Source of the DNA: Candidatus Hermodarchaeota archaeon
Lineage (GTDB): Archaea; Asgardarchaeota; Lokiarchaeia; Sigyniarchaeales; SOKP01
Direction: 5' to 3'
Assembly (NCBI GenBank): GCA_048885925.1
Contig: JBHLLG010000005.1
Coordinates: 26,867-90,866 of the forward strand
DNA length: 64,000 nucleotides
The notes beneath the pieces are model-generated. The model ran no database searches, was not told the DNA's origin, and saw nothing but the letters and a program-made list of their open reading frames with translations. Each line of letters starts with the position of its first letter. The stretch's first letter is position 1. Below, one piece after another: positions 18,018-19,586 of this stretch. A program made the position numbers and the translations under genes.

Positions 18018-19586
18018 TTAGACTCTTTGAATCACCATACCTCCTAACCTTATTGGACCACCGCTAGCATTGTATATTTTTTCTGCCTTTCTTAATTTGG
18101 ATTCACTATGAGAGTAAACTTTAAAAACAAGATCTCCCTTTTTAATTTTTGCTCCTTGTTTTTTAATTATTTCTACACCAGAAACTTTAGAACTTGGACA
18201 TCCTGCAGCTTTAGCAATCTGATTAATTATTGAATTATTTACTTCAACAATATATCCATCTTTAGTGGCAAAGAATTCTTTTATGTGTGGTCCTAATTCA
18301 ATATCTTCTGGAGTAATTTCCGGATCACCGCCTTGAGCTTCAATGATTTTTTTCATTTTTTCGTAAGCTTTTCCAGAACTTAAGATGTCTTTAGCTAGAG
18401 TTTGACCCATACCTTTCTGAGCTTTACCACTCATTTCAAGAAGAATACCTGCCAAGTCAGTAGATTTTTCTATTAAAGAATTTGGGCCAGCAGAATAATC
18501 GCGTAATAGTGTAAGAGCTTCTTTAGCTTCTATAGCAGGCCCTACAGCATGACCTATAGGTTGATGAGCTAGTGTGAGGGCGCATTCAGCTTCAATACCT
18601 ACATTTGCAGCAATTTCTTTAAATAAATAGGCGAATTGTTTTCCCTTATCAGCGGTTGTAAATTTAGTTCCTTCACCCACAGGTATATCAAGTACAAGCT
18701 TTTTTACTCCTAGAGACAATTTTTTTGTAAGGATTGAGGGTATCATAAGACCAATAGGATCCATATGTAAGGGGCGTTCGATTTCAATTAATATGTTATC
18801 TGCAGGTGCTGTTTCAAGCGCTCCACCCCATATTATACAAGCATTTTCTTTGGATACAATTTCTTTTAATTCTGTCGGTGTGAACGCAACAGGGGCTAAT
18901 ACTTCCATAGAATCTGCGGTTCCAGATGGAGATGTTATTGCTCTTGTAGAAGATTTTGGAATTGTTAATCCTGCTGCTGCAACAATTGGTACTATAATAA
19001 GAGAGACTTTATTTCCAGGAACGCCGCCTTTTAACAAAACTTACGAAATGTAAATTTTTGTGCTATGTTTATCATAGACATCCATTCCAAAATAAAAAAT
19101 CTCTCCACTTCGTGTTTCTGCTAACGTTAAAGCTGTCATCTCTTCATTATCCATTCCATTAATTGCAACTCCAGTTATAAAAGCAGCTAAATCGATTCGT
19201 GACAAGGAACCTGAGACAGCATCAGATACGATCTTACCTATTTCTTCACTTGACAATCTATTTCCTTTAACCTTTTTTTGAATATATTTAAATGAATCTG
19301 GTGGATCTGCCGGTTTAACTGAAAGTATCATATCATCTTTTAAATTTCTTTTTTCCCGCAATATATTCAAAAATATACCAATTTCACCTTGTTTAACAAT
19401 AGAATCCGAATAATCTATTTGTAATATTGCTACCCAGTATTTTTCTTCAATAGATTTTGTCTGCGGATTTTTAATAATGATCCTTTCTCCTGCCTTTTGC
19501 CCGAGTTCTTGAGCATCTTTAATGTTTACAACTACATCTTTAGTATTTCCTGTTTCAAAATTTATTTTTTTTACTTTAAGTTTCAT
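18018..19586 (-). CDS. deoA: AMP phosphorylase, intron-interrupted: complement(join(18018..19029,19060..19586)), 512 aa
   Basis: The two track ORFs are in the same frame; removing 30 nt yields DKHSTGGVPGNK; KSSTRAITSPSGTAD, APAD and DIPVG motifs; N-terminal extension typical of archaeal AMP phosphorylase. Confidence 0.9.
19030..19059 (-). other. Candidate 30-nt BHB/BHL-type mRNA intron
   Basis: RNA: UAGC-AC^A-AAAAUUUAC-AUUUC-GUAAGUUUU-GUUA-AA^A-GGC; 4-bp helix UAGC/GUUA, 3-nt bulges, 9-bp intron stem, contains in-frame UAA. Confidence 0.85.

Follow-up and report, generated by a model that had tools for sequence, protein, structure and literature searches.

The AMP phosphorylase gene of a Candidatus Hermodarchaeota archaeon (Lokiarchaeia) raises the question of how an enzyme can be produced from a reading frame that is broken by a stop codon within a conserved loop. 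The gene is located on contig JBHLLG010000005.1 (GenBank assembly GCA_048885925.1), in the stretch from 26,867 to 90,866 that is referred to here as the window (64,000 nucleotides, the whole stretch of DNA that was analysed, with positions counted from its first base). On the minus strand of the window, positions 19586..18018 were found to constitute one frame of the thymidine phosphorylase family (AMP phosphorylase) with a single break, at which exactly 30 extra nucleotides (19059..19030) lie between the two halves. These nucleotides very likely represent an intron of the AMP phosphorylase pre-mRNA, with a relaxed motif of the bulge-helix-bulge (BHB) type, termed HBh', that would be spliced by the archaeal tRNA splicing endonuclease EndA.

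The insert in the AMP phosphorylase gene

The break is in frame and reads GMDVYDKHSTKIYIS*VLLKGGVPGNK, with ten inserted codons (KIYIS*VLLK) that follow ...GMDVYDKHST and precede GGVPGNKVSL, and with a TAA stop codon at 19043..19041. The original prediction, made from this sequence, had described two in-frame halves separated by 30 nt with a UAA inside the DKHST-GGVPGNK motif, and the sequence reads exactly so. Exon 1 (19060..19586) begins with an ATG at 19586..19584 and ends with the AC of a threonine codon, while exon 2 (18018..19029) begins with the A that completes this codon (ACA), continues with GGC GGC GTT and ends with a stop codon at 18020..18018. Excision of 19059..19030 gives AGC ACA GGC GGC (S-T-G-G) in a stop-free frame of 512 codons (527 nt and 1009 nt of coding sequence), which is the product that had been foreseen.

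The N half (175 aa) matched positions 1-165 of the NCBIfam profile AMP_phos (TIGR03327) with 108.8 bits and the C half (336 aa) positions 167-500 with 446.7 bits, and the two are therefore contiguous parts of one protein; a rough sum of the separately scored halves amounts to 555.5 bits versus a cut-off of 535 bits. With Pfam, Glycos_trans_3N was identified in the N half, and Glycos_transf_3 (from profile position 11) and PYNP_C in the C half. An intronless orthologue from a congener was aligned to PDB entry 4ga5_B (E 1.7e-124), and as this alignment runs through the site (dvydKHSTGGVPGNK versus imDVHSIGGVPGNK), the loop that contains the insert is uninterrupted and conserved in the solved homologue. 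The DKHST/GGVPGNK loop is phosphate-binding in this enzyme family.

The interrupted gene is the sole AMP phosphorylase copy of the source genome (one match). Two genes of the RuBisCO large-subunit family were also observed there, namely one at C5:25466-26308 (165.8 bits), some 560 bases before the start of the window and approximately 20 kb from the AMP phosphorylase gene, and a second, better-scoring one on contig C30 (309.7 bits). RuBisCO is the partner of AMP phosphorylase in the archaeal AMP pathway, and would hence be available in this genome.

Distribution, pairing and history of the insert

The C half was searched against 60 related genomes, with the gene being found in 57. Within the genus of the window, an interrupted frame of 340 aa was present at 12 of 34 full-length places, the others being open over 391-528 aa. 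A further 80 loci, from metagenome-assembled genomes of Promethearchaeota/Promethearchaeia, a few of them labelled as Hod-, Odin- or Thorarchaeota, came from a scan of species-representative genomes. Among 111 loci, 76 had no insert, 33 had one of 30 nt and two had one of 31 nt, and in every insert-bearing locus it split the threonine codon after its second base. Excision at the positions set by the BHB motif yielded a stop-free frame of 509-540 codons containing DKHSTGGVPGNK in all 35 insert-bearing loci; the two 31-nt inserts shift the frame unless removed, and the same excision restored it in both. Deduplication across both sets of loci left 87 distinct genes, with an insert at this site in 27 and none in 60.

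In the RNA, the 5' part of the region across the insert reads UAGC (19065-19062), ACA (19061-19059) and AAAAUUUAC (19058-19050), followed in the 3' part by AUUUC (19049-19045), GUAAGUUUU (19044-19036), GUUA (19035-19032), AAA (19031-19029) and GGC. UAGC is exonic, comprising the third base of a histidine codon and the adjoining serine codon, and pairs with GUUA at the 3' end of the intron in 27/27 distinct sequences, forming a 4-bp central helix (H). ACA constitutes a 5' bulge of three nucleotides that are unpaired in every aligned sequence, with the predicted 5' cut after 19060. AAAAUUUAC and GUAAGUUUU form the 9-bp intron stem (h'), the 3' strand of which contains the in-frame TAA, around the loop AUUUC, which is extended to 6 nt in the two 31-nt variants. 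AAA is the unpaired 3' triplet, without an adjacent closing helix and with the predicted 3' cut after 19030. The layout of helix, bulge and stem that had been proposed thus agrees with the RNA letters, and it is borne out by comparison with relatives.

For the 12 sequences of the same genus, the proposed helices were paired in 98.7% of cells, with changes on both sides in six of the 13 pairs. For the 27 distinct sequences, 98.0% of 351 cells were paired, versus 29.6-49.3% when the 3' partners were slid by 1-3 columns; both-side (compensatory) changes were identified in 10 of the 13 pairs (38 cells), and none of 500 shuffles matched the observed values. Across these 27, the intron stem was paired in 97.1% of cells with eight of its nine pairs altered on both sides, and in diverged sequences it was wholly different (e.g. 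UAUAUUGAA/UUCAAUAUA) with pairing kept. The central helix was paired in 100% of cells, with U:A replaced by C:G in seven sequences and C:G by U:A in one. Synonymous changes in the exon at the His and Ser codons (CAU AGC to CAC AGY) were matched by changes at the 3' end of the intron (GUUA to GCUG). Furthermore, RNAalifold recovered both helices from the alignment alone. The serine codon was AGY in 27/27 intron-bearing genes, with the 60 intronless genes divided between AGY (27) and TCN (33); this bias fits a pairing constraint on the codon, related sequences not being independent observations. No family in Rfam matched the insert site.

With regard to motif class, the 4-bp helix and the 5' 3-nt bulge of the canonical hBHBh' form are present and conserved, with the 3' triplet unpaired and lacking an adjacent outer helix. 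The outer helix that would lie beside the bulges in the canonical form is absent, as the ..AAACA located 5' of UAGC cannot pair with GGCGG. Because no helix adjoins the 3' triplet AAA, the motif is a relaxed HBh' rather than an hBHBh', combining a central helix H and an intron helix h' with one well-formed bulge, and the label of a relaxed motif given to it in the original prediction was appropriate. It had also been proposed that the exon side closes further out. The location of this closure corresponds roughly to a helix returned by RNAalifold (columns 21-27 with 79-85), of GGAUGUC (19077..19083) and GGCGUUC (19019..19025), but this possible distal helix is weak, with one-sided changes only and two broken cells.

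A quick maximum-likelihood tree was built from the 87 proteins, and on it the insert required 14 parsimony changes, at least seven of them forced by well-supported branches. It was still clustered on this tree, with 14 changes versus a mean of 23.3 for shuffled states and none of 500 shuffles as low. Since the tree is an unrooted gene tree, losses, gains and recombination are not separable on it. The simplest reading, from the homology of site and structure, would be one old origin followed by repeated precise loss or allele replacement, and under the explanation favoured here the intron is old in the lineage and has repeatedly been lost or moved by recombination among close relatives. A single old origin with repeated loss was likewise proposed for the cbf5 intron in PMC2738675. 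One related assembly (G034, 9% contamination) was observed to have both an intronless AMP phosphorylase gene (contig C103) and an intron-bearing one (contig C128). As the gene sequences differ and the assembly is contaminated to this degree, they probably belong to two co-binned strains or species and are not an allele pair.

Proposed splicing and the alternatives to it

The source genome, assembled from a metagenome, is a 3.9-Mb draft in 181 contigs, estimated as 95% complete with 4.4% contamination. A catalytic (alpha-type) EndA subunit of 198 aa with both Pfam domains was identified at C22:7600-8214. It aligned end to end with the catalytic subunit of Aeropyrum pernix (3p1z_B, E 5.5e-38), ungapped across the Crenarchaea-specific loop, with a K and an R aligning with K44 and R46. 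This loop is described, in PMC3241643, as giving cleavage of relaxed (bulge-helix-loop, BHL) motifs, with K44 being required. Asgard archaea are reported, in PMC5829648, to have an (alpha-beta)2 EndA that carries it, and a 2026 preprint on Asgard tRNA introns gives two EndA paralogues in 44/60 Asgard genomes. A gene for the ligase RtcB (569.6 bits) is also present in the source genome. With ARAGORN, 19 tRNA predictions were flagged as intron-bearing, some of which are doubtful (introns of 146 and 1335 nt). ARAGORN found few tRNA genes for a genome of 95% completeness, and many are probably missed owing to non-canonical or multiple introns.

In the splicing proposed here, UAGC at the exon end would pair in the pre-mRNA with GUUA at the 3' end of the intron to form the 4-bp central helix, with the 3-nt bulge ACA and then the 9-bp intron hairpin on the 5' side, and unpaired AAA on the 3' side. 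EndA would cut after the second base of each triplet, following which RtcB would ligate the exons and probably circularise the 30-mer. The TAA would thereby be lost and ...DKHST-GGVPGNK... recreated in a 512-aa enzyme. The insert had been suggested to be an endonuclease-spliced intron of a protein gene, and at the level of sequence this is supported by the fixed site, the size of 30-31 nt, covariation, restoration of the frame, intronless orthologues, purifying selection acting on each half, and the presence of genes for EndA and RtcB.

A number of observations weigh against this explanation. Cleavage, ligation and the exact register of the cuts are inferred from DNA, and the sequence leaves the register ambiguous, since moving both cuts by one base in the 3' direction also gives threonine, with an identical product. 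The minimum-energy fold of the single sequence pairs UAGC with an upstream CUAUG, although the intron hairpin does form. The fold of 86 nt had a z of -1.72, and for one sequence by itself the observation does not exceed chance, in contrast to the comparative data, which do so by far. The nearest predicted outer helix (19083-19077/19025-19019), which lacks compensatory changes, is separated from the motif by an internal loop of 11 nt and 6 nt. At the 3' site there is no true bulge, and cleavage would therefore depend on an endonuclease of broad specificity. Five queries did not reveal an EndA beta subunit in the 95%-complete assembly. They comprised profile searches with PF01974 (E up to 10), PF02778 and TIGR00324, and a phmmer search with the alpha subunit against 6,929 stop-to-stop open reading frames (ORFs). 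Five weak phmmer candidates were scanned with Pfam, and were discarded as FmdE, a HAD hydrolase, ribosomal protein L13, an unassigned protein and an RNA methyltransferase.

The genome-wide scan that had been recommended likewise lent the motif no general support. The pattern sought in the whole assembly consisted of a 4-bp helix with a 3-nt bulge, a hairpin of 6 bp or more, the second helix strand and an unpaired 3-nt triplet, and its excision had to join two interrupted frames, neither of them shorter than 60 codons. There were 492 hits with 3-nt bulges versus 479, 514, 499 and 513 with bulges of 2, 4, 5 and 6 nt, and thus motif and ORF joining together were not enriched over controls of wrong geometry, nor were short high-quality subsets. 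As the wrong-bulge controls give equal counts, the motif alone is no evidence and the scan only nominates candidates. At the transcript level, none of the RNA runs listed contained the locus. Six metatranscriptomes that share a study with DNA runs containing it were considered; four were searched at 85% likeness, and no reads matched the locus, a result that is uninformative either way. A further point against splicing is that an in-frame TTG was found 2-3 codons before GGVPG in 19/27 sequences.

This TTG would serve as the start codon if the gene were simply split, with the N half ending at the TAA, the C half starting at the TTG at 19037..19035 in the window, the two halves assembling as polypeptides and the hairpin being merely intercistronic. 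A TTG-started ORF of 339 aa does exist. In the remaining 8/27 sequences, however, translation could begin no earlier than 2-40 codons past the junction, so that a portion of the conserved loop would be missing, and the helices are nevertheless kept. The TTG itself is located in the paired stem and central helix, and the 14 nt upstream of it are without a purine-rich ribosome-binding sequence. The break, moreover, falls in the loop that is contiguous in 4ga5, and a split gene leaves both the covariation between exon 1 and the 3' end of the insert and the fixed size of 30-31 nt unexplained. On these grounds a split gene is considered improbable.

Removal or bypassing of the insert by a route other than EndA and RtcB, namely another nuclease and ligase or ribosomal hopping over the hairpin, is also quite unlikely. 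The missing beta subunit and the non-canonical 3' site would suit such a route, and the succession of stop codon and hairpin is reminiscent of known bypass signals such as that of phage T4 gene 60. Nevertheless, all 27 sequences keep the geometry of 4 bp and a 3-nt bulge that is specific to EndA substrates. Ribosomal bypassing was rejected as there is no conserved pair of take-off and landing codons: one relative (L020) has ACA GAA ... GAU UGG, and in another (L100) UAA directly follows ACA. Readthrough or recoding of the stop codon was rejected since in-frame stops differ in number and kind, with two inserts being 31 nt in length. Group I and group II introns, other ribozymes and inteins were rejected on the basis of the length of 30 nt, the in-frame stops and the negative Rfam search.

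That the insertion has inactivated the gene, leaving a decaying pseudogene, might be concluded from the in-frame stop and from ORF calling, which yields two fragments, as had been expected of annotation pipelines that would call a split gene or pseudogene. Neutral evolution of the two halves was not seen, though it had been named as an outcome that would overturn splicing. Among intron-bearing genes, the median pairwise ratio of nonsynonymous to synonymous substitution rates (dN/dS) was 0.109 for exon 1 and 0.076 for exon 2, versus 0.101 and 0.063 for the corresponding parts of intronless genes, with a median dS of more than 1.3. These values indicate that both halves are under purifying selection; at 0.08-0.11 they equal those of intact orthologues, at saturated dS. 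The interrupted gene was the only full-length copy in all five diverged intron-bearing genomes checked, and no other lesion was found in any of the 35 insert-bearing loci. With the helices of the insert conserved in addition, a pseudogene is highly improbable.

An assembly or sequencing artefact, or a mobile hairpin repeat resembling a miniature inverted-repeat transposable element inserted by chance, is barely credible: the source is a contaminated draft in many contigs, but the insert occurs in sequence-diverged forms in many independently deposited assemblies, which contradicts the artefact named earlier as a possible refutation, and a dispersed repeat was rejected because blastn-short of the insert found only itself, with chance matches of no more than 19 nt elsewhere in the genome.

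Other interrupted genes and comparison with known systems

The scan candidates with the best scores proved to be genuine split genes, and six more protein genes of the source genome were found to contain BHB inserts of 30-34 nt, namely those for aEF-2, carbon monoxide dehydrogenase (CODH), acetyl-CoA synthase (ACS), CdhA, a ferredoxin-like protein and a JAB protein, all with uninterrupted orthologues in congeners. The original prediction, confined to AMP phosphorylase, was too narrow in this one respect. The six were judged by motif, profile and orthologue comparison, with the covariation statistics covering AMP phosphorylase only, and the count leaves out scan candidates on contigs C17, C1, C23 and C61. 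A candidate on C75 was rejected as two separate genes, for an arginase-family protein and deoxyhypusine synthase.

The CODH/Prismane gene (C4:36656-38592) contains a 32-nt insert on the plus strand (C4:38336-38367) with a full canonical hBHBh' motif, including a 6-bp outer helix (GCUCCA/UGGAGC). Of the 513 positions of Pfam Prismane, exon 1 covers 3-457 and exon 2 covers 458-512. An 80-aa segment over the predicted junction was ungapped in 24 orthologues of the same genus, with the gene split in the source genome only. The exon hairpin of this gene was observed to be already present in intronless orthologues. The gene for the ACS beta subunit/CdhC (C16:1353-2834) has a 30-nt insert of the BHB type on the minus strand (C16:1839-1810), at GGG|KQ, with positions 1-154 of ACS_CODH_B_C in exon 1 and 156-242 in exon 2. 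This insert is common to one relative (G027); two others (G004 and G017) have a different 30-nt insert in that conserved stretch, approximately 15 nt further upstream, and there are hence two intron positions in one motif. In the gene for the CdhA-like CODH (C6:5327-7715), a 34-nt BHB-type insert on the plus strand (C6:5548-5581) lies in a Cys-rich stretch that reads PICDMCCLCT after excision. Its frame is 733 aa versus 783-792 aa in most orthologues, and frames of 731-733, 746 and 716 aa elsewhere hint at the same or other inserts.

The aEF-2 gene (C2:54790-57090) is interrupted on the minus strand by a 30-nt BHB-type insert (C2:56880-56851) between positions 35 and 49 of the GTP_EFTU profile, just before EEQERGIT of the G domain. 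The interrupted frame of 694 aa was found in 9/40 genomes searched, versus 750-760 aa in most others, and compensatory changes were identified among the inserts. A paralogue of aEF-2 that is 43% identical was observed on contig C14. The gene of the JAB/MPN protein (C15:17897-18899) has a 31-nt insert on the minus strand (C15:18569-18539) that shifts the frame unless removed. Excision recreates HSHPGFKVMMSHID, which corresponds to the JAMM motif HxHx7Sx2D. The interrupted frame was found in 6/40 genomes searched, with a G:C pair of the central helix replaced by A:U in one relative. Finally, the gene of the ferredoxin-like protein (C31:18713-19299) has a 32-nt insert on the minus strand (C31:18988-18957) which, with an outer helix of 8 bp, is the best canonical BHB of the scan. 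Its excision recreates CNGCAFCIRAC (CxxCxxCxxxC). Most orthologues are continuous at 184-188 aa, and frames of 87-89 aa in three relatives (G023, G016 and G004) suggest further interrupted copies.

The source genome thus appears to hold at least seven such mini-introns in protein genes, and Lokiarchaeia probably carry a living population of endonuclease-spliced mini-introns of 30-34 nt in protein genes, present or absent within one genus. If so, enzymatic splicing of mRNA with ongoing gain and loss of introns would take place in protein genes of the closest archaeal relatives of eukaryotes. The mini-introns would affect aEF-2 and three CODH/ACS subunits within highly conserved catalytic motifs, with the CODH insert having been seen in the source genome only. 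Standard gene calling would systematically mis-annotate core genes of Lokiarchaeia as fragments or pseudogenes, and gene calls, pathway reconstructions and completeness estimates would miss or break AMP phosphorylase, aEF-2 and CODH/ACS. The polymorphism for presence among congeners would offer a natural system for the gain and loss of enzyme-spliced introns in protein genes. Discussion of how eukaryotic introns arose usually centres on group II introns; Asgard mRNAs that need the tRNA splicing machinery would add a second splicing system.

In a full-text literature search, with most subscription journals lying outside it, no description of BHB introns in protein genes of Asgard archaea was found, in agreement with the claim that none had been described in this gene or lineage. 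The nearest items were the papers on cbf5, those on EndA in which Asgard archaea are grouped with the loop-bearing enzyme, and the 2026 preprint on Asgard tRNA introns, from which the term 'mRNA' is absent and in which the single use of 'protein-coding' refers to neighbouring genes. Elements of this kind are known from cbf5, while the gene, the lineage and the set of polymorphic mRNA mini-introns are new as far as these searches show. By 2009, according to PMC2738675, cbf5 was the only case of archaeal pre-mRNA splicing confirmed, and was linked to hetero-oligomeric EndA. AMP phosphorylase, an enzyme of central metabolism, would add a well-supported case from an Asgard archaeon.

Like the cbf5 intron of Crenarchaeota (Desulfurococcales, Sulfolobales), the AMP phosphorylase insert is short, has a BHB motif, interrupts a protein gene and restores the frame on excision, with patchy presence and lineage-specific loss in both cases. 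It differs in its host gene, in its occurrence in Asgard archaea (Promethearchaeota), in its relaxed HBh' motif and in having at least six companion genes; furthermore, the splicing of cbf5 was confirmed, whereas the present intron is a prediction. With HBh' tRNA introns it shares the 4-bp central helix, the 3-nt 5' bulge, h' and a 3' site in a loop, as well as the expected dependence on the Crenarchaea-specific (L1) loop of EndA, as described in PMC3241643 and PMC5829648. Unlike in those introns, the host is an mRNA without a tRNA body, and the exon half of its motif must also encode His-Ser-Thr.

Splicing of eukaryotic HAC1/XBP1 mRNA by Ire1 is similarly non-spliceosomal and performed by protein enzymes, with two stem-loop sites, joining by a tRNA ligase (of the RtcB type in metazoa) and a changed product, but the Ire1 nuclease and its recognition motif are different and that system is regulated by stress. 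The BHB sites that flank archaeal 16S and 23S rRNA represent the same enzyme and motif acting on a substrate other than tRNA. Those sites release and circularise rRNAs and restore no reading frame, whereas excision of the AMP phosphorylase insert would restore one.

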